Positions 1 through 11,412 of a stretch of 11,412 nucleotides of DNA are shown piece by piece. The notes beneath the pieces were generated by a model, which was not told the origin of the DNA, ran no database searches, and saw only the letters and a program-made list of their open reading frames with translations. A program made the translations under genes and the position numbers. Every line of letters starts with the position of its first letter. The first letter of the stretch is position 1. The stretch lies in the IMG/VR virus record IMGVR_UViG_2734482594_000005. One strand, given 5' to 3'. The stretch is from a virus. Lineage: Duplodnaviria; Heunggongvirae; Uroviricota; Caudoviricetes.

Positions 1-567
1 CCAGACACAGCGTTGTATCGGGACTGGCTCGCCTATGCAGGAGCAAATATTCCGACTACTTTTACACCGTCCGGTACGGTGACGCTTTCATGGTCTAAAG
101 CCGCGTGGGAAATCTGGAGTAAAACACTGACTGGAGAAACAGTTCCGTTCAGCTTCACGCTTTCGAATGGAGAGGGGGCATACACTTTCAGTTTCCCGAA
201 GGTTCAGGTGTCAGGTGAATGGCCTGATGGGGGTAATAGCGACATTATCCAGGTTCAATTGAGCATTACCGCAGCAGATNNNNNNNNNNNNNNNNNNNNN
301 NNNNNNNNNNNNNNNNNNNNNNNNNNNNNNNNNNNNNNNNNNNNNNNNNNNNNNNNNNNNNNNNNNNNNNNNNNNNNNNNNNNNNNNNNNNNNNNNNNNN
401 NNNNNNNNNNNNNNNNNNNNNNNNNNNNNNNNNNNNNNNNNNNNNNNNNNNNNNNNNNNNNNNNNNNNNNNNNNNNNNNNNNNNNNNNNNNNNNNNNNNN
501 NNNNNNNNNNNNNNNNNNNNNNNNNNNNNNNNNNNNNNNNNNNNNNNNNNNNCCCGTAATGCATTAA
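1..567 (+). CDS. Putative major tail (tube) protein, 5'-truncated by the window edge; the called stop at 565-567 lies just after mask 280-552
   Basis: Frame 1 is open from position 1 (PDTALYRDWLAYAGANIPTTF...IIQVQLSITAAD). The mask is 273 nt (a multiple of 3) and a TAA follows at 565-567. Position immediately upstream of the G/T chaperone pair matches lambdoid synteny. I do not recognise the protein family from sequence alone. Confidence 0.45.
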   Translation, partial: PDTALYRDWLAYAGANIPTTFTPSGTVTLSWSKAAWEIWSKTLTGETVPFSFTLSNGEGAYTFSFPKVQVSGEWPDGGNSDIIQVQLSITAADXXXXXXXXXXXXXXXXXXXXXXXXXXXXXXXXXXXXXXXXXXXXXXXXXXXXXXXXXXXXXXXXXXXXXXXXXXXXXXXXXXXXXXXXXXXPVMH

Positions 568-587
568 TCCGTCGCCACATTGAGAAA

Positions 588-878
588 ATGGATGCCAGTT
601 TGCACGTCGGAACGAAGGAGTTTGATATTTCAAAGGTTTCCGAGGTGGATTCTGTTGATGATTTACTCATTGATAATGCCGCTCGTTATCTGCTGAAAGA
701 CTGGAAAGGGGTTGGTGAACTGGTTAATGGTGTTGAGGTTGCACTGGAATATACGGCAGAACGAGGGATCGCGCTGCTTAAGCAGAATCCAGAGTTGTAC
801 TGGCAGATCCTTGCAGAAGCAGCCAGCATCGCCCAGGGTAAAGAGCAGCAGAAGCAGGATACGATAAAAAAGCCATAG
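588..878 (+). CDS. G: Tail assembly chaperone (gpG-like), 96 aa from the ATG at 588
   Basis: ATG at 588, 21 nt after the upstream stop, with a weak GAGA Shine-Dalgarno. Small acidic protein directly upstream of the tape measure gene, ending in the slippery heptamer at 866-872 and TAG at 876-878. The frame is also open upstream to the mask edge at 555, so the true start could lie inside the mask. Confidence 0.6.
   Translation: MDASLHVGTKEFDISKVSEVDSVDDLLIDNAARYLLKDWKGVGELVNGVEVALEYTAERGIALLKQNPELYWQILAEAASIAQGKEQQKQDTIKKP
866..872 (+). other. Programmed -1 ribosomal frameshift slippery heptamer A AAA AAG (G to G-T fusion)
   Basis: The heptamer aaaaaag sits in X XXY YYZ register relative to the G frame (codons AAA 867-869, AAG 870-872), 4 nt before the G stop. 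The -1 frame is open from 872 onward with no stop before the mask at 1073. Confidence 0.6.
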
Positions 879-1396
879 CTGCCCAGCGGTGGTTATCGGA
901 GTTCGGGGGAGAAAGGGGGGAAAAGGCAAGATGGAAGCGAGAAAAACTCAGGTTGCCACCGATACCGGAACCAGAAATAGACCCGGTGCTTAAGGAGTTG
1001 TTGTACGCCTATTCGGTAATATCCCGTGCCCGACGTTATGCTGGAATGGCTGGGGTGCCTTTGCCTTTATCTNNNNNNNNNNNNNNNNNNNNNNNNNNNN
1101 NNNNNNNNNNNNNNNNNNNNNNNNNNNNNNNNNNNNNNNNNNNNNNNNNNNNNNNNNNNNNNNNNNNNNNNNNNNNNNNNNNNNNNNNNNNNNNNNNNNN
1201 NNNNNNNNNNNNNNNNNNNNNNNNNNNNNNNNNNNNNNNNNNNNNNNNNNNNNNNNNNNNNNNNNNNNNNNNNNNNNNNNNNNNNNNNNNNNNNNNNNNN
1301 NNNNNNNNNNNNNNNNNNNNNNNNNNNNNNNNNNGTGGGTTTTTTGTTGTCAGGAGTTTTAATAAATGGCAGAGCAAACCTCGCGTCTCGCAATAA
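872..1396 (+). CDS. T: Tail assembly protein T-like extension, expressed only as a G-T fusion by -1 frameshifting; the 3' end is uncertain (mask 1073-1334)
   Basis: The -1 frame relative to G is open from 872 to 1072 ([35 protein letters not shown]...) with no ATG-initiated start of its own; the ORF track only finds a TTG at 953. After the mask the same frame stops at 1394-1396, overlapping the H start, but the real stop may be inside the mask. Confidence 0.5.
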
Positions 1397-4300
1397 TTAT
1401 TGATAGCACTGGAGCGAAAAATAATGCTGACAATCTGACCTCCTCATTAGTCAAAATGACGCAGGCTGGGGAAACTGCTGCAAATAGCGCAGGGAAAGTG
1501 ACTAAGGCAACAGAAGATGAGAAGAACGCGCTCGCAAAATTAAAAGCAGCTATTGATCCAGTTGGTGCCGCAATTGATACTGTCGGTCGACGCTATTCTG
1601 AATTAAAGAAATTTTTCGATAAAGGGCTTATTGATAAAGAAGAATATGAATTTCTTGTCCGTAAACTTAATGAAACCACAGAGGAATTGAGCGGGGTTGC
1701 GCAAGCGCAGAGAGAAGCCGAGAAGGCCGGAAAACTTGCTGCCGCCCAGCAGGAAGCGCAGGCTCAGGCCTTTCAAAGAATGCTGGACAAGATCGACCCT
1801 CTGGCTGCGGCGCTAAGAAATCTTGAACAACAGCATGATGAACTTAATGCTGCGTTTGCATCCGGGAAAANNNNNNNNNNNNNNNNNNNNNNNNNNNNNN
1901 NNNNNNNNNNNNNNNNNNNNNNNNNNNNNNNNNNNNNNNNNNNNNNNNNNNNNNNNNNNNNNNNNNNNNNNNNNNNNNNNNNNNNNNNNNNNNNNNNNNN
2001 NNNNNNNNNNNNNNNNNNNNNNNNNNNNNNNNNNNNNNNNNNNNNNNNNNNNNNNNNNNNNNNNNNNNNNNNNNNNNNNNNNNNNNNNNNNNNNNNNNNN
2101 NNNNNNNNNNNNNNNNNNNNNNNNNNNNNNGCTATGCGGAGTGAGCTTGAGGTTACTCAATCACAATTAAGCAAAACCGGAATGTCGGCAAAACAAACGG
2201 CTTTTGCTATGCGCATGTTGCCTGTACAAATGACGGATATTGTTGTTGGGTTGTCCACTGGTCAGTCGCCATTTATGGTGTTAATGCAGCAGGGCGGCCA
2301 GCTAAAAGATATGTTCGGTGGGATTGGCCCGGCGATCAAAGGTGTAGGTTCTTATGTGCTGGGATTAATTAATCCTTTTACCCTGGCCGCAGCAGCCGTT
2401 GGGGTCTTAGGACTGGCTTACTATAAAGGCTCTCAGGAGCAGGACGAATTTAATAAATCTCTTATTCTTACCGGAAATCAGTTGGGGACAACCAGCGGGC
2501 AATTGGNNNNNNNNNNNNNNNNNNNNNNNNNNNNNNNNNNNNNNNNNNNNNNNNNNNNNNNNNNNNNNNNNNNNNNNNNNNNNNNNNNNNNNNNNNNNNN
2601 NNNNNNNNNNNNNNNNNNNNNNNNNNNNNNNNNNNNNNNNNNNNNNNNNNNNNNNNNNNNNNNNNNNNNNNNNNNNNNNNNNNNNNNNNNNNNNNNNNNN
2701 NNNNNNNNNNNNNNNNNNNNNNNNNNNNNNNNNNNNNNNNNNNNNNNNNNNNNNNNNNNNNNNNNNNNNNNNNNNNNNNNNNNNNNNNNNCAGCAGGAGG
2801 CCGCCCGCATTGCGACAGAAGAATACTCATCCTCAATGATCCAGCGCACCAACCAGATTAAAGAAAATCTTGGTTATCTTGAGACTGCATGGAAAGCTGT
2901 NNNNNNNNNNNNNNNNNNNNNNNNNNNNNNNNNNNNNNNNNNNNNNNNNNNNNNNNNNNNNNNNNNNNNNNNNNNNNNNNNNNNNNNNNNNNNNNNNNNN
3001 NNNNNNNNNNNNNNNNNNNNNNNNNNNNNNNNNNNNNNNNNNNNNNNNNNNNNNNNNNNNNNNNNNNNNNNNNNNNNNNNNNNNNNNNNNNNNNNNNNNN
3101 NNNNNNNNNNNNNNNNNNNNNNNNNNNNNNNNNNNNNNNNNNNNNNNNNNNNNNNNNNNNNNTAAACGATTACAACAAGCGACAACAGGAAGGAATTGAA
3201 CTCAGACAGAGAGCAGATGCCTTTTCAAAACAATATCAGACCCGGGAGCAGCAGAGAGCTAGTGAACTTGCAAAACTGGAAAAGCTAAAGAATCAGTATT
3301 CAAAGGAAGAATATAATAATCTTATCGCTCAAATAAATGAGCGTTATAAAGATCCAAAGCAACNNNNNNNNNNNNNNNNNNNNNNNNNNNNNNNNNNNNN
3401 NNNNNNNNNNNNNNNNNNNNNNNNNNNNNNNNNNNNNNNNNNNNNNNNNNNNNNNNNNNNNNNNNNNNNNNNNNNNNNNNNNNNNNNNNNNNNNNNNNNN
3501 NNNNNNNNNNNNNNNNNNNNNNNNNNNNNNNNNNNNNNNNNNNNNNNNNNNNNNNNNNNNNNNNNNNNNNNNNNNNNNNNNNNNNNNNNNNNNNNNNNNN
3601 NNNNNNNNNNNNNNNNNNNNNNNNNNNNNNNTTGCGATTGAAAAAAATAACAGGCTAATCAAGGAATCCGCCGAAATAACAGCATGGCGTGATTCATTGC
3701 AGGCTTCGATTGATAATCGTCAGCAGGGGTATGATATTCAGATTGCTGGTTNNNNNNNNNNNNNNNNNNNNNNNNNNNNNNNNNNNNNNNNNNNNNNNNN
3801 NNNNNNNNNNNNNNNNNNNNNNNNNNNNNNNNNNNNNNNNNNNNNNNNNNNNNNNNNNNNNNNNNNNNNNNNNNNNNNNNNNNNNNNNNNNNNNNNNNNN
3901 NNNNNNNNNNNNNNNNNNNNNNNNNNNNNNNNNNNNNNNNNNNNNNNNNNNNNNNNNNNNNNNNNNNNNNNNNNNNNNNNNNNNNNNNNNNNNNNNNNNN
4001 NNNNNNNNNNNNNNNNNNNNNNNNNNNCAGGGATTCAATAACTGGCTGGATGACACTAAGGATATCAGTGAGCAGATAAAATCAACCACGACTCAGATGT
4101 TTGATGGGATGACCGATGCGCTGGGTGATTTTGTCACGACAGGCAAGGCAAATTTTCGTTCTTTCGCTACTTCCGTGATTTCGGATCTTAGTCGAATAGC
4201 ATTAAAGGCTTCAATTACTGGGATTTTCGACAGCATTAGTAACAGTTCTTCTGGGGGGATTTTAGGAACTATCGGGAGTGCTATTAGTAAATTTATTCCG

Positions 4301-4666
4301 AATGCAAAGGGCGGTGTTTATGAGTCTCCGTCATTGAGCACGTATTCGAACGGTATTTATGATTCCCCGCAATTTTTTGCTTTTGCAAAAGGGGCTGGTG
4401 TTTTTGGTGAGGCTGGACCGGAAGCCATTATGCCATTAACACGAACTTCCGATGGTTCTCTTGGTGTCAGAGCTATTAATAGTAAAAGTGGTAATGGAGG
4501 CGGAGATATTACCTATGCCCCTGTATACCAAATCACTATTCAAAATGACGGCCAGAATGGAGAGATTGGCCCTCAGGCAATAAAAGCACTTATGGGGATG
4601 GTTGATCAGCGGGTGCAGGGCAATCTGTTAAATATGCGACGTGATGGGGGAATGTTAAGTGGCTAA
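1366..4666 (+). CDS. H: Tail tape measure protein (gpH-like), about 1100 aa if continuous; interrupted by five masked blocks, with frame changes across three of them
   Basis: ATG at 1366 with AGGAG at 1352-1356; the N-terminus MAEQ resembles lambda H (MAE...). Conserved TMP blocks are visible, e.g. [35 protein letters not shown] and the C-terminal [16 protein letters not shown]...[10 protein letters not shown], both similar to lambda gpH as I recall it. The coiled-coil-like Q/E/K/A-rich composition is typical. TAA at 4664-4666. Confidence 0.85.
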
Positions 4667-4997
4667 TACGGAAGAATTTCACTGGTTACCAGAGGATGGA
4701 ATGAAAACAGAAAATAAACCATCGATAAAAACTGTAAGATTTGGTGATGGTTATGAGCAACGAAGTCCAAATGGACTTAATCATTCTCTGCGCGTTTTCA
4801 CCTGTGATTTCAAAGTTGAGGCGAATGAACGTGATTCATTTGAAAAATTTTTAGCCCGGCATGAAGGCTATAAATCTTTTTTTTGGCGCCCGCCGGGTAT
4901 TAACAGAAAAATCAGAGTGGTGTGTCGAACGTGGTCAGCGACAGAACATATCACCTATACCGATTTTTCGTGTCAGTTTGACGAAGTGGTGATCTGA
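4659..4997 (+). CDS. M: Minor tail protein M (gpM-like)
   Basis: GTG start at 4659 overlaps the H stop (GTGGCTAA). The protein MANTEEFHW...KTVRFGDGYEQRSPNGLN...YKSFFWRPP...FDEVVI aligns with lambda gpM (MKTFRW...VRFGDGYSQRAPAGLN...WKSFLWTPP...FEQVVN). The stop TGA overlaps the L start as TGATG. Confidence 0.85.
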   Translation: MANTEEFHWLPEDGMKTENKPSIKTVRFGDGYEQRSPNGLNHSLRVFTCDFKVEANERDSFEKFLARHEGYKSFFWRPPGINRKIRVVCRTWSATEHITYTDFSCQFDEVVI

Positions 4998-5695
4998 TGC
5001 AGGACATACAACAGGAAACGCTGAATGAATGCATTCGTGCGGAGCAGTCGGCCAGCGTGGTGCTCTGGGAAATCGACCTGACCGAGGTAGGCGGGGATCG
5101 CTACTTTTTCTGCAATGAGCAGAACGAGAAAGGAGAGTCTGTCACCTGGCAGAGTCGGCAGTATCAGGCCTATCCCATTCAGGGGAGTGGATTTGAGATG
5201 AACGGCAAAGGTGCCAGTGCAAGGCCAACGCTGAAAGTCTCTAATCTGCACGGCATGGTCACCGGGATGGCGGAAGACCTGCAGAGTCTGGTCGGCGGAA
5301 CGGTGGTCAGGCGTAAGGTTTACGCCCGTTTTCTGGATGCGGTGAACTTCGTCAACGGAAACAGTGACGCCGATCCGGAGCAGGAGGTGATCAGCCGCTG
5401 GCGTATTGAGCAGTGCAGCGAACTGAGCGCGGTCAGTGCCTCCTTTGTACTGTCCACGCCGACGGAAACGGACGGCGCTGTTTTTCCGGGGCGCATCATG
5501 CTTGCTAATACCTGCACCTGGACCTATCGCGGTGATGAGTGCGGTTATCACGGTCCGGCTGTCGCGGATGAATATGACCAGCCAACGTCCGATATCACGA
5601 AGGATAAATGCAGCAAATGCCTGAGCGGTTGTAAGTTCCGCAATAACGTCGGCNNNNNNNNNNNNNNNNNNNNNNNNNNNNNNNNNNNNNNNNNN
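4997..5695 (+). CDS. L: Minor tail protein L (gpL-like); 4997-5653 is read directly, the last ~14 codons and stop are inferred inside mask 5654-5951
   Basis: MQDIQQETLNECIRAEQSASVVLWEIDLTEVGGDRYFFCNEQNEKGE... is near-identical to lambda gpL as I recall it, including the C-terminal cysteine-rich CTWTYRGDEC...CSKCLSGC region. The end coordinate is inferred from the 699-nt lambda L length and the 586-nt repeat offset. Confidence 0.75.
5366..5653 (+). repeat. Direct repeat copy 1: 3' half of L (codons 124-219), in frame with the L start
   Basis: 288 nt that reappear 586 nt downstream at 5952-6239 with about 93% identity, compared codon by codon by eye. Confidence 0.85.
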
Positions 5696-5951
5696 NNNNN
5701 NNNNNNNNNNNNNNNNNNNNNNNNNNNNNNNNNNNNNNNNNNNNNNNNNNNNNNNNNNNNNNNNNNNNNNNNNNNNNNNNNNNNNNNNNNNNNNNNNNNN
5801 NNNNNNNNNNNNNNNNNNNNNNNNNNNNNNNNNNNNNNNNNNNNNNNNNNNNNNNNNNNNNNNNNNNNNNNNNNNNNNNNNNNNNNNNNNNNNNNNNNNN
5901 NNNNNNNNNNNNNNNNNNNNNNNNNNNNNNNNNNNNNNNNNNNNNNNNNNN

Positions 5952-6281
5952 GACGCCGATCCGGAGCAGGAGGTGATCAGCCGCTGGCGCATAGAGCAGT
6001 GCAGCGAACTGAGCGCGGTGAGTGCCTCTTTTGTACTGTCCACGCCGACGGAAACAGATGGCGCTGTTTTTCCGGGACGTATCATGCTGGCCAACACCTG
6101 CACCTGGACCTATCGCGGCGATGAGTGCGGTTATAGCGGTCCGGCGGTCGCGGATGAATATGACCAGCCGACGTCCGATATCACGAAGGATAAATGCAGC
6201 AAATGCCTGAGTGGCTGTAAGTTTCGCAATAATGTCGGCAACTTTGGCGGCTTCCTTTCCATTAACAAACTTTCGCAGTAA
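5952..6281 (+). pseudogene. Second diverged copy of the L 3' half (L' fragment, at least codons 124-232 plus stop), out of frame with the upstream L; probable recombination remnant
   Basis: DADPEQEVISRWRIEQCSELSAVSASFVLSTPTETDGAVFPGRIMLANTCTWTYRGDECGYSGPAVADEYDQPTSDITKDKCSKCLSGCKFRNNVGNFGGFLSINKLSQ* read in frame 0. The offset from copy 1 is 586 nt (586 mod 3 = 1). TAA at 6279-6281 is followed 5 nt later by the K start, as the L-K junction is in lambda. Its 5' extent is hidden by the mask. Confidence 0.6.
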
Positions 6282-6286
6282 ATCCC

Positions 6287-7030
6287 ATGACAGAGACAGA
6301 ATCAGCGATTCTGGCGCACGCCCGGCGATGTGCGCCAGCGGAGTCGTGCGGCTTCGTGGTGAGAACACCGGAGGGGGAAAGATATTTTCCCTGCGTGAAT
6401 ATCTCCGGTGAGCAGGAGGAGTATTTCCGGATGTCGCCGGAGGACTGGCTGCGGGCAGAGATGCAGGGTGAGATTGTGGCGCTGGTCCACAGCCACCCCG
6501 GTGGTCTGCCCTGGCTGAGTGAGGCTGACCGGCGGCTGCAGGTGCAGAGTGATTTGCCGTGGTGGCTGGTCTGCCGGGGTGAGATTCATAAATTCCGCTG
6601 TGTGCCGCATCTCACCGGGCGGCGCTTTGAGCACGGGGTGACGGACTGTTACACGCTGTTCCGGGATGCTTACCATCTGGCGGGGATTGAGATGCCGGAT
6701 TTTCATCGTGAGGATGACTGGTGGCGTCACGGTCAGAATCTCTATCTGGATAATCTGGAGGCCACAGGGCTGTATCAGGTGCCGTTGTCAGCGGCGCAGC
6801 CGGGCGATGTGCTGCTGTGCTGTTTTGGTTCATCGGTGCCGAATCATGCCGCTATTTACTGCGGCGACGGCGAGCTGCTGCACCATATTCCTGAACAACT
6901 GAGCAAACGAGAGAGGTATACCGACAAATGGCAGCGACGCACACACTCCCTCTGGCGTCACCGGGCATGGCACGCATCTGCCTTTACGGGGATTTGCAAC
7001 GATTTGGCCGCCGCATCGACCTTCGTGTGA
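6287..7030 (+). CDS. K: Tail tip assembly protein K (gpK-like); MPN/JAMM plus NlpC/P60 two-domain protein
   Basis: MTETESAILAHARRCAPAESCGFVV... carries the JAMM motif HSHPGGLPWLSEAD (H-x-H-x7-S-x2-D) around 6488-6529, and a downstream Cys (TDCYTLF, about 6647) and His consistent with an NlpC/P60 fold. The 744-nt ORF starts 5 nt after an L stop, matching the extended K ORF of lambda. Confidence 0.85.
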   Translation: MTETESAILAHARRCAPAESCGFVVRTPEGERYFPCVNISGEQEEYFRMSPEDWLRAEMQGEIVALVHSHPGGLPWLSEADRRLQVQSDLPWWLVCRGEIHKFRCVPHLTGRRFEHGVTDCYTLFRDAYHLAGIEMPDFHREDDWWRHGQNLYLDNLEATGLYQVPLSAAQPGDVLLCCFGSSVPNHAAIYCGDGELLHHIPEQLSKRERYTDKWQRRTHSLWRHRAWHASAFTGICNDLAAASTFV

Positions 7031-7575
7031 AAACGGGGGCCGAAGCCATCCGGGCGCTGGCCACACAGCTCCCGGCGTTTCGTCAGAAACTGAATGAGGG
7101 CTGGTATCAGGTGCGCATTGCCGGGCGTGATGCAGGCGAAAATGAATTATCTGCCCGTCTTAATGAGCCGCTGGCAAATGGTGCCGTGATCCACATCGTG
7201 CCGCGTCTGGCGGGAGCTAAAAGTGGCGGTGTGTTTCAGGTGGTGCTTGGGGCGGCGCTGATTGCGGTGGCATGGTGGAATCCTGTGAGTTGGCTGGGTG
7301 CCGCGGCTGTATCGGGCATGTATGCGGCAGGGGCCAGTATGATCCTGGGCGGAGTGGCGCAGATGCTGGCACCGAAAGCCAGGACGCCCACGGCAGCCAG
7401 TACAGATAACGGCAAACAGAACACGTATTTCTCCTCACTGGATAACATGGTTGCCCAGGGCAATGTTCTGCCGGTTCTGTACGGGGAAATGCGCGTGGGG
7501 TCACGCGTGGTTTCTCAGGAGATCAGCACGGCAGACGAAGGGGACGGTGGTCAGGTTGTGGTGATTGGTCGCTGA
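6928..7575 (+). CDS. I: Tail tip assembly protein I (gpI-like)
   Basis: MAATHTLPLASPGMARICLYGDLQRFGRRIDLRVKTGAEAIRALATQLP...NGKQNTYFSSLDNMVAQGNVLPVLYGEMRVGSRVVSQEISTADEGDGGQVVVIGR matches lambda gpI as recalled. It overlaps the K 3' end by 103 nt in another frame, which I recall as the same geometry as lambda K/I. Confidence 0.8.
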   Translation: MAATHTLPLASPGMARICLYGDLQRFGRRIDLRVKTGAEAIRALATQLPAFRQKLNEGWYQVRIAGRDAGENELSARLNEPLANGAVIHIVPRLAGAKSGGVFQVVLGAALIAVAWWNPVSWLGAAAVSGMYAAGASMILGGVAQMLAPKARTPTAASTDNGKQNTYFSSLDNMVAQGNVLPVLYGEMRVGSRVVSQEISTADEGDGGQVVVIGR

Positions 7576-7593
7576 TGCAAAATGTTTTATGTG

Positions 7594-7620
7594 AAACCGC
7601 CTGCGGGCGGTTTTGTCGTT
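7594..7620 (+). terminator. Hairpin plus U-rich tract between I and J (weak terminator or attenuator candidate)
   Basis: aaaccgcc-tgcg-ggcggttt forms a perfect 8-bp stem (GC core ccgcc/ggcgg) with a 4-nt loop, followed by tgtcgttt. It lies 19 nt after the I stop and 16 nt before the J start. Confidence 0.3.
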
Positions 7621-7635
7621 TATGGAGCGTGAGGA

Positions 7636-10600
7636 ATGGGTAAAGGCAGCAGTAAGGGGCATACCCCGCGCGAAGCGAAGGACAACCTGAAATCCACGCA
7701 GCTGCTGAGTGTGATTGATGCCATCAGCGAAGGGCCGATTGAAGGTCCGGTGGATGGATTAAAAAGCGTGCTGCTGAACAGTACGCCGGTGCTGGACAGT
7801 GAGGGGAATACCAATATATCCGGCGTCACGGTGGTGTTCCGGGCAGGTGAGCAGGAGCAGACTCCGCCGGAGGGGTTTGAATCCTCCGGCTCCGAGACGG
7901 TGCTGGGTACGGAAGTGAAATATGACACGCCGATCACCCGTACCATTACGTCGGCAAACATCGACCGTCTGCGCTTTACCTTCGGTGTACAGGCACTGGT
8001 GGAAACCACCTCAAAGGGTGACAGGAATCCGTCGGAAGTCCGCCTGCTGGTTCAGATACAGCGTAACGGTGGCTGGGTGACGGAAAAAGACATCACCATT
8101 AAGGGCAAAACCACCTCGCAGTATCTGGCCTCGGTGATGGTGGATAACCTGCCTCCGCGCCCGTTCAATATCCGGATGCGCAGGATGACACCGGACAGCA
8201 CTACAGACCAGCTGCAGAACAAAACGCTCTGGTCGTCATACACAGAAATCATCGATGTGAAACAGTGCTACCCGAACACGGCACTGGTCGGCGTGCAGGT
8301 GGACTCGGAGCAGTTCGGCAGCCAGCAGGTGAGCCGTAATTATCATCTTCGCGGGCGCATTCTGCAGGTGCCGTCGAACTATAACCCGCAGACGCGGCAA
8401 TACAGCGGTATCTGGGACGGAACGTTAAAACCGGCATACAGCAACAACCCGGCCTGGTGTCTGTGGGATATGCTGACCCATCCGCGCTACGGCATGGGGA
8501 AACGTCTTGGTGCGGCGGATGTGGATAAATGGGCGCTGTATGTCATCGGCCAGTACTGCGACCAGTCGGTGCCGGACGGCTTTGGCGGCACGGAGCCGCG
8601 CATCACCTGTAATGCCTGGCTGACCACGCAGCGCAAGGCGTGGGATGTGCTCAGTGATTTCTGCTCGGCGATGCGCTGTATGCCGGTATGGAACGGGCAG
8701 ACGCTGACGTTCGTGCAGGACCGACCGTCGGATAAGGTGTGGACCTATAACCGCAGTAATGTGGTGATGCCGGATGATGGCGCGCCGTTCCGCTACAGCT
8801 TCAGCGCCCTGAAAGACCGCCATAATGCCGTTGAGGTGAACTGGATTGACCCGGATAACGGCTGGGAGACGGCGACAGAGCTTGTGGAGGATACGCAGGC
8901 CATTGCCCGTTACGGTCGTAACGTCACGAAGATGGATGCTTTTGGCTGTACCAGCCGGGGGCAGGCACACCGCGCCGGGCTGTGGCTGATTAAAACGGAG
9001 CTGCTGGAAACGCAGACCGTGGACTTCAGCGTGGGTGCTGAAGGGCTTCGCCATGTACCGGGCGATGTCATTGAAATCTGCGATGATGACTATGCCGGTA
9101 TCAGCAACGGTGGTCGTGTGCTGGCGGTGAACAGCCAGACCCGGACGCTGACGCTCGATCGTGAAATCACGCTGCCATCCTCCGGTACCACGCTGATAAG
9201 CCTGGTTGACGGAAGTGGCAATCCGGTCAGCGTGGAGGTTCAGTCCGTCACCGACGGCGTGAAGGTGAAAGTGAGCCGTGTTCCTGACGGCGTTGCTGAA
9301 TACAGCGTGTGGGGGCTGAAGCTGCCGACGCTGCGCCAGCGCCTGTTCCGCTGCGTGAGTATCCGTGAGAACGACGACGGCACGTATGCCATCACCGCCG
9401 TGCAGCATGTGCCGGAAAAAGAAGCCATCGTGGATAACGGGGCGCACTTTGACGGCGACCAGAGCGGCACGGTGAATGGTGTCACGCCGCCAGCAGTGCA
9501 GCATCTGACCGCCGAAGTCTCCGCAGACAGCGGGGAATATCAGGTACTGGCCCGCTGGGACACGCCGAAGGTGGTGAAGGGCGTGAGCTTCCTGCTCCGT
9601 CTGACCGTAACAGCGGATGACGGCAGTGAGCGGCTGGTCAGCACGGTCCGGACGACGGAAACCACATACCGCTTCAGGCAGCTGGCGCTGGGGCGTTACA
9701 CGCTGACGGTCCGGGCGGCAAATGCGTGGGGGCAGCAGGGCGATCCGGCATCGGTATCGTTCCGGATTGCCGCACCTGCAGCGCCTGTCACTATTGAACT
9801 GATACCAGGGTATTTTCAGATAACAGCGGTCCCGAAACTGGCTGTATATGACCCGACGGTGCAGTTTGAGTTCTGGTTCTCGGAAAAGCGGATTGCTGAT
9901 ATCAGGCAGGTTGAAACCACAGCCCGCTATCTTGGCACGGCGCTGTACTGGATAGCTGCCAGTAGCAATATTAAGCCGGGTTATGATTATTACTTTTATA
10001 TCCGCAGCGTGAATACCGTTGGTAAATCGGCATTTGTGGAGGCCGTCGGTCGGGCGAGCGATGATGCGGAAGGTTATCTGAATTTTTATAAAGGGTTGAT
10101 CAATAAAACGCATCTCGGCAAGGAGCTACTGGAAAACTTTGAGCTGACGGAAGATAACGCCAGCAAACTGGAGCAGTTTTCGAAAGAGTGGAAGGACGCC
10201 AACGATAAGTGGAATGCCATGTGGGGCGTCAAAATTGAGCAGACCAAAGACGGCAAACATTATGTCGCGGGTATTGGCCTCAGCATGGAGGACACGGAGG
10301 AAGGCAAACTGAGCCAGTTCCTGGTTGCCGCTAACCGTATCGCGTTTATTGATCCGTCTAATGGCAACACAAGACCAATGTTTGTTGGTCAGGGCGATCA
10401 GATATTCATGAACGACGTGTTCCTGAAACGCCTGACGGCTCCGACCATTACCAGCGGCGGTAATCCTCCGGCATTTTCCCTGACACCGGACGGGCGGCTG
10501 ACGGCGAAAAATGCCGATATCAGCGGTAACGTGAATGCGAACTCCGGGACGCTCAACAACGTCACGATTAACGAGAACTGTCGGGTTCTGGGAAAACTGT

Positions 10601-11031
10601 CCGCGAACCAGATTGAAGGCGATCTCGTTAAAACAGTGGGCAAAGCTTTCCCCCGGGACTCCCGTGCACCGGAACGGTGGCCATCAGGGACCATTACCGT
10701 CAGGGTTTATGACGATCAGCCGTTTGACCGGCAGATTGTTATTCCGGCGGTGGCATTCAGCGGCGCTAAACATGAGAGAGAGCATACTGATATTTACTCC
10801 TCATGCCGTCTGATAGTGCGGAAAAACGGTGCTGAAATTTATAACCGTACCGCGCTGGATAATACGCTGATTTACAGTGGCGTTATTGATATGCCTGCCG
10901 GTCACGGTCACATGACGCTGGAGTTTTCGGTGTCAGCATGGCTGGTAAATGACTGGTATCCCACAGCAAGTATCAGCGATTTGCTGGTTGTGGTGATGAA
11001 GAAAGCCACCGCAGGCATCAGTATCAGCTGA
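7636..11031 (+). CDS. J: Host specificity / central tail fibre protein J (gpJ-like), 1131 aa
   Basis: ATG at 7636 with a GGAG upstream. [54 protein letters not shown]... and most of the length are near-identical to lambda gpJ as I recall it. The size matches (lambda J is 1132 aa). The last ~150 aa diverge. TGA at 11029-11031. Confidence 0.95.
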
Positions 11032-11050
11032 ATTTTATAACCCATATACG

Positions 11051-11077
11051 GGCGCCAGAAATGGCGCCTTTTTTATT
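11051..11077 (+). terminator. Rho-independent terminator downstream of J
   Basis: ggcgcca-gaaa-tggcgcc is a 7-bp GC-rich stem with a GAAA tetraloop, immediately followed by ttttttatt. Confidence 0.55.
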
Positions 11078-11098
11078 GCAGAAAAGCGAGAGGTAATT

Positions 11099-11412
11099 AT
11101 GCGTAAAGTTTGTGCAGCCATTTTGTCCGCAGCCATCTGTCTGGCCGTATCCGGTGCGCCTGCATGGGCGTCTGAGCAGCAGGCCACGCTGAGCGCGGGG
11201 TATCTTCATGCCTCGACGAACGTTCCCGGCAGCGATGATCTGAACGGGATTAACGTGAAATACCGTTATGAATTTACGGACACGCTGGGGCTGGTGACGT
11301 CATTCAGCTATGCAGGAGACAAGAATCGCCAGCTTACCCGTTACAGCGATACCCGCTGGCATGAAGATTCCGTGCGTAACCGCTGGTTCAGCGTGATGGC
11401 GGGGCCGTCTGT
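11099..11412 (+). CDS. lom: Lom/Ail/PagC-family outer membrane protein (lom-like), 3'-truncated by the window edge
   Basis: ATG at 11099 with GAGAGG 7 nt upstream. A signal peptide [24 protein letters not shown] is followed by [12 protein letters not shown]...RWFSVMAGP, which aligns with lambda Lom ([12 protein letters not shown]...RYVSVMAGP). The frame is open to the end of the window and the gene sits directly after J, as in lambda. Confidence 0.8.

Follow-up and report, generated by a model that had tools for sequence, protein, structure and literature searches.

Two alleles of tail gene L at a scaffold gap: a probable false duplication in a draft lambdoid prophage record

A 288-nt segment of the tail gene L occurs twice in the virus record IMGVR_UViG_2734482594_000005, an 11,412-nt stretch of DNA that we analyzed in full and refer to as the window. 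The two copies directly adjoin a run of Ns at positions 5654-5951 from both sides, on the same scaffold. We consider it probable that the assembler placed two alleles of L side by side, and that the repeat is a false duplication rather than an insertion. According to this model, the sequenced DNA would have contained the 3′ half of L in two allelic forms, with two lambdoid prophages in one genome as the likeliest source and a second strain in the sample as a less likely one. A short-read assembler may have been unable to merge the alleles, which are 7% apart; one contig would have ended inside L (allele 1, nt 657) and another begun inside L (allele 2, nt 370), and the scaffolder would have joined both contigs in series by an N run whose length was an estimate. 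That the join is an error, and the origin proposed for the second allele, are inferences on our part.

The pair lies on one scaffold and is parted by an assembly gap; it carries allele-specific differences (20), hence the copies are two versions of one locus; and this locus is single-copy in gap-free relatives. Duplicated pairs parted by an assembly gap have been described as the hallmark of false duplications (Ko et al. 2022, Genome Biol 23:205, PMC9516828). As in the heterotype-type false duplications of that study, diverged versions adjoin across a gap, the better assemblies of relatives are single-copy, and the extra fragment was called as a gene. The setting differs, in that the versions described there are haplotypes of diploid vertebrates, whereas the window comes from a bacterial draft, in which they would stem from paralogous prophage modules or from two strains.

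The 288-nt direct repeat is the sole repeat family in the window (Table 1). Its copies have 20 mismatches (93.1% identity) that change 19 of the 96 codons. Eighteen of these 19 codon differences are synonymous, and the remaining one, CAC/AGC, is a His/Ser difference in the motif GY(H/S)GPAV. We recomputed all of these values, and the repeat given in a preliminary description of this DNA (L codons 124-219 at both 5366-5653 and 5952-6239, with the same codon differences) holds. Copy 2 remains open in the L frame to a TAA at 6279-6281, and the ATG of K follows 5 nt on, at 6287. The L-type stop just before K that had been described can therefore be read directly off the sequence, and the 5-nt spacing between L and K is the same as in annotated relatives.

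Table 1. Features of the window. For the N runs, the number of Ns is given next to the length of the corresponding sequence in three complete E. coli genomes.
Feature	Position in window	Strand	Number of Ns	Length in GPEC1258, NCTC10444 and APEC17 (nt)	Description
Left block	1-5653	+			Eight sequenced pieces, seven N gaps; end of tail tube gene, ydaY, tape measure, M, L nt 1-657
N run 1	280-552		273	261/262	
N run 2	1073-1334		262	248	
N run 3	1871-2130		260	260	
N run 4	2507-2790		284	293	
N run 5	2901-3162		262	245	
N run 6	3364-3631		268	243	
N run 7	3752-4027		276	242	
Tail gene M, Rac-type allele	4659-4997	+			Called gene; PF05939; identical to the "phage tail protein" of relatives
L allele 1, Rac-type	4997-5653	+			Codons 1-219 of 232, cut by gap; PF05100
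Copy 1 of repeat	5366-5653	+			L nt 370-657 (codons 124-219)
N run 8	5654-5951	.	298		Scaffold gap of estimated length; only Ns between the copies
Right block	5952-11412	+			One gap-free contig: L 3′ half, K, I, J, start of lom
Copy 2 of repeat	5952-6239	+			L nt 370-657 (codons 124-219)
L allele 2	5952-6281	+			Codons 124-232 and stop; opens the right-hand contig; PF05100
Tail gene K	6287-7030	+			5 nt past the stop of L allele 2; PF14464, PF00877

An exact look-up of the J protein identified the window as the whole of a public record, CXAI01000130.1 (assembly GCA_001249355.1), of 11,412 bp; a search for literature on its accession found none. The window and the record match letter for letter, Ns included. 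Therefore, the eight N runs, which are 260-298 nt each and all lie within the first 6 kb, are assembly gaps of the deposited draft scaffold and not a mask over known sequence. Gene calls of CXAI01000130.1 break off and resume exactly at the N edges, with one L call at 4997-5653 and another, for a second piece of L, at 5952-6281. Two open reading frames that run across the Ns, at 4997-6124 (+, 375 aa) and 4973-6103 (-, 376 aa), are artefacts of translating Ns.

The lengths of these gaps are estimates. Taking true lengths from the complete E. coli genomes GPEC1258, NCTC10444 and APEC17, the N count minus the true length was +12, +14, 0, -9, +17, +25 and +34 nt at gaps 1-7, and the flanks of gap 8 overlap by 288 nt when set against complete Rac-type genomes. 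If the Ns were length-preserving, the tape measure gene, which is intact in relatives, would shift frame several times at the gaps; these apparent frame changes appear because the N counts are off by -9 to +34 nt. Among the matches listed, the L locus spans 2494 positions in the window versus 1908 in complete E. coli genomes, and 2372 versus 1786 in phage genomes, the extra 586 positions being the sum of 288 nt and 298 Ns. Since the Ns do not preserve length, both the 586 and the frame of copy 2 describe the record as a string and not the DNA. The preliminary description had counted exactly 586 extra bp, which is correct as a string length relative to the listed relatives and incorrect for the DNA, 298 of the positions being Ns of estimated size; it had also placed copy 2 out of frame with the start of L, a statement that has no physical meaning across a gap of estimated length. 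Its treatment of 5654-5951 as a mask gives way to the public record, of which these Ns are part, and to the seven other gaps, where Ns are not length-preserving. The preliminary description had itself named Ns that do not preserve length as a finding that would refute it, and these seven gaps show just that. The same evidence bears on the proposal that a length-preserving mask hides a 586-bp unit, at 5110-5695, repeated exactly at 5696-6281. Its appeal lies only in counting the letters of the record as they stand, but the Ns do not preserve length at the seven testable gaps, and the copies have 7% divergence and different lineage affinities and so do not represent an in-situ duplication. We regard an exact 586-bp repeat as barely conceivable.

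The gap between the copies is also where the ancestry of the scaffold changes. By sequence comparison, we assign the left block to the tail module of a Rac-family prophage. Its pieces are 99.6-100% identical to, and colinear with, the genomes of GPEC1258, NCTC10444 and APEC17, and L allele 1 is 100% identical to the L of these three strains. Full-length versions of the left block are found in ~700 complete E. coli genomes, and part of the homologous region is shared at 99.9% with the Rac remnant of E. coli K-12 (ydaY, ynaA, ynaK). Identity to Rac-type prophages falls exactly at the gap, from 100% up to 5653 to 93.4% from 5952 onward. In complete E. coli genomes, the best match to the right block (98.6%) was in prophages that have a lambda-type left module. 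L allele 2 is 93.9% identical to Rac-type L, 97.3% to the L of APEC 102026 and 98.3% to that of strain 2017.17.01CC; copy 2 has 5/288 differences from the 2017.17.01CC allele and 9/330 from the APEC 102026 allele. On these comparisons, the flanks of the gap are assigned to different allele lineages. It had been proposed that the copies diverged as functional alleles in different lambdoid lineages rather than by recent in-situ duplication, and that alignment to the L genes of prophages would identify donors. The first proposal was borne out, and in the alignment copy 1 is 100% Rac-type, of the kind in GPEC1258, NCTC10444 and APEC17, and copy 2 is nearest to other alleles, with that of 2017.17.01CC the closest.

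Exact look-ups of the K and J proteins of the window matched only this record in the collection. A look-up of protein I returned ten long contigs, all of which have a single L and are only 95-97% identical. Relatives with a 93% match to the remainder of J align poorly (77%) or fail to align over its 3′ part (window ~10128-10992), a pattern consistent with exchange of the receptor-binding region.

Differences of the kind seen between the copies are found among L alleles in nature. Over the same 96 codons, copy 1 differs from other natural alleles by 11-21 synonymous and 0-3 replacement changes, and L differs by 3-7% among Rac-type variants with near-identical tape measure genes. Residue 185, the site of the His/Ser difference, is H, S or N among natural L alleles. 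Judged against these alleles, the synonymous excess between the copies is the ordinary state of any two natural L alleles, and His/Ser at residue 185 is an ordinary polymorphism in an L protein without unusual features. Lambda gpL is a tail tip protein with a [4Fe-4S] cluster held by Cys173/182/205/212 (PMC10721106). The likeness to the window extends to both L pieces, which match PF05100, to the M-L-K-I-J gene order and to the corresponding cysteines. Residue 185 lies three positions past Cys182, which agrees with its earlier placement between the iron-sulfur cysteines, and the stretch CTWTYRGDEC...CSKCLSGC, hence all four cluster cysteines, is present in both copies.

The positions at which the two contigs end within L fit the distribution of variation in this gene. 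L nt 250-407 is nearly identical between the types, with nt 369, 370 and 372 polymorphic; none of the 30 alleles collected varies at nt 373-407 or 652-710. The start of the right contig (nt 370) and the end of the left contig (nt 657) lie at the borders of these invariant blocks, which any two L alleles within a genome would share as exact repeats. Contig breaks induced by repeats are expected at the borders of such blocks, beside polymorphic sites. Among specific assembly parameters, a De Bruijn k of 39 fits where the right contig starts, the first difference following 38 nt later, but fails for the end of the left contig, and no k-mer arithmetic that we tried accounts for an end at L nt 657.

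The other seven gaps all fall in the left 5.6 kb, in single-copy Rac-type sequence, and the right 5.4 kb is gap-free. Each hides 242-293 nt, a uniform size with a sharp lower limit. We considered several causes for these gaps, none of which held up. Repeats do not explain them, as a hidden and a visible tape-measure segment that were compared each occur once per genome. Base composition does not either, with hidden segments at 42-46% GC versus 38-50% for visible ones. Polymorphic sites of a mixed sample were likewise not supported: across four Rac-type variants, the hidden segments show no excess of variation, and only one gap boundary coincides with a known SNP among these variants. A k of ~241 would match the smallest gap sizes but predicts several gaps of equal length, which are not seen, and a search for a common sequence motif at the ends of the pieces found none. 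Near the start of the scaffold, in the tail tube gene (window ~34), the window reads gcc-tat where all relatives have gccttat. This 1-nt deletion would frameshift the gene and is probably an assembly error.

We surveyed other genomes for loci at which L is doubled. A single L, followed by K after 5 nt, was present in 30 of 30 other loci fetched. The query matched 4,390 of 5,426 complete E. coli genomes, with a one-L span in every match listed, and a one-L span was likewise found among all matches listed in phage genomes. A pattern for the tandem geometry (the L stop followed, 200-261 nt later, by the invariant nt 373-392 block) had zero matches in 2.9 million viral contigs over two distance ranges, while the normal L geometry was present in at least 120 of the same contigs. 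When IMG/VR contigs with the normal geometry were checked for the number of L genes, 119 of 120 had one. The lone contig with two, IMGVR_UViG_2698536312_000003 (L157), has copies at 3950-5508 and 6094-7641 (M-L-K′, 85% identical) with a single N, at 5497, exactly between them. L157 is a second example of the scaffold-gap duplication class. Like the window, it is a draft lambdoid tail region with two diverged L copies parted by its only N; the unit is 1.56 kb with 85% identity and a single N in L157, versus 288 nt, 93% and 298 Ns in the window.

E. coli genomes usually carry several lambdoid tail modules, with a median of 3 matching places per genome, and up to 15. In APEC17, the left type (100%) and a right-type module (97.7%) are present together, in two different prophages. 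A chimeric assembly of two related prophages, kept as a fallback in the preliminary description, is the better explanation and matches the reading that we favor. Our model predicts partner contigs in the same assembly, with a Rac-type K-I-J and with the 5′ half of allele 2 and its upstream genes. We also sought other contigs of this assembly; the genome-contig scan matched only lambda-like sequence in other organisms. In that scan, the exact 46-nt lambda L-K junction was found in species-representative assemblies of unrelated bacteria (loci L005-L026), including Neobacillus, Psychrobacter, Pseudoxanthomonas, Shewanella, Kitasatospora, Bradyrhizobium and others. Most of these contigs are labelled with a coverage of ~1 and some are ~48.5 kb long; they look like lambda DNA contamination of the assemblies.

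The size of the gap argues against a false duplication. The scaffolder's estimate is positive (298) and in the same size class as the seven colinear gaps, whereas read pairs from two prophages at homologous positions would imply a value of about -288. A positive spacing is what true adjacency of the copies predicts; the same estimates err by up to 34 nt elsewhere in the scaffold. We give this argument limited weight because the logic of the scaffolder is opaque. It is nevertheless the starting point for an alternative in which the window holds a complete Rac-type L, then a leftover 3′ fragment of a second allele and the K-I-J of that allele, as a scar of illegitimate recombination. The gap would then hide ~250-300 nt of real sequence: the tail of allele 1, the junction and part of allele 2. 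A physical link between the alleles is the simplest account of a positive gap value, and the flanks of the seven gaps of this size class are truly adjacent. Most of the hidden stretch would be repeated L blocks, on which a short-read assembler would fail, and Rac-type prophages with L alleles near copy 2 exist.

Joints near L are also common, L being a mosaic boundary at which left modules of Rac type, lambda type (TMP_2) and HK97 type (TMP_3) meet homologous L-K-I-J genes. Between Rac- and lambda-type modules, nucleotide homology begins exactly at the L start codon, and the sequences upstream are unrelated. Mosaic joints of lambdoid phages reportedly arise by illegitimate recombination followed by selection, in a model attributed to Hendrix and Juhala. 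The M/L boundary resembles such joints in bringing unrelated left modules together with homologous L-K-I-J, and a leftover gene fragment at the joint is precisely what a genuine second copy of L would be. Mosaic joints are, however, defined by contiguous sequence across the joint, and in the window only Ns lie between the copies. The arrangement is absent from ~150 other loci, from the complete E. coli genomes and phages among the matches listed, and from the viral contigs searched for the tandem geometry, and its sole analogue, L157, is itself split by an N. A 100%-identical left module is present in five complete E. coli genomes, always with its own K-I-J. The quality of the scaffold, moreover, is poor: it has 8 gaps within 6 kb in addition to the 1-nt deletion near its start. 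We therefore view a genuine scar of this kind as unlikely. It is similarly improbable that the scaffold order is right in its narrower form, with Rac-type L followed by ~330-590 bp of a 7%-diverged L allele and its K-I-J, as a fresh scar at M/L that has yet to undergo deletion. The original proposal, in which a 586-bp unit with the second copy was inserted between L and K, lacks support on the same grounds: the junction consists of Ns, and every gap-free relative examined is arranged otherwise.

A false duplication could also have come from a mixed sample. Here, two strains or a contaminant would have contributed Rac-type variants that differ in the 3′ half of L, and both arms of the resulting bubble would have been placed in one scaffold. 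This is a sub-type of the assembly artefact and differs from our favored reading only in the source of allele 2. Strain 2017.17.01CC provides a natural example of a Rac-type prophage with an L allele close to copy 2 (5/288), but its genes past L are only 94% identical to those of the window. A single-L hybrid of the left module, copy 2 and the window's K was found in no complete genome above 97.6% identity. The fragmented left block next to a contiguous right block suggests unequal depth or heterogeneity, and the 288-nt overlap is similar in size to the sequence hidden by the other gaps (298 = 288 + 10). On the other hand, comparison of Rac-type variants showed no greater polymorphism in the sequence hidden by the other gaps than in the visible pieces, and no direct sign of a mixture was seen. 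We give a mixed sample only a slim chance, and two prophages within one genome remain our preferred source of the second allele.

The window illustrates how diverged extra copies on either side of an N run can resemble an insertion in a draft scaffold, and they should not be read as one; nor are the lengths of N runs fit for arguments about reading frame or unit length. Should the two L copies prove to be truly adjacent, they would represent a small, non-functional scar that shows shuffling of tail modules at the M/L boundary of lambdoid prophages. Such a scar would be a modest example of what a long-accepted model for these phages describes, and not a new mechanism.
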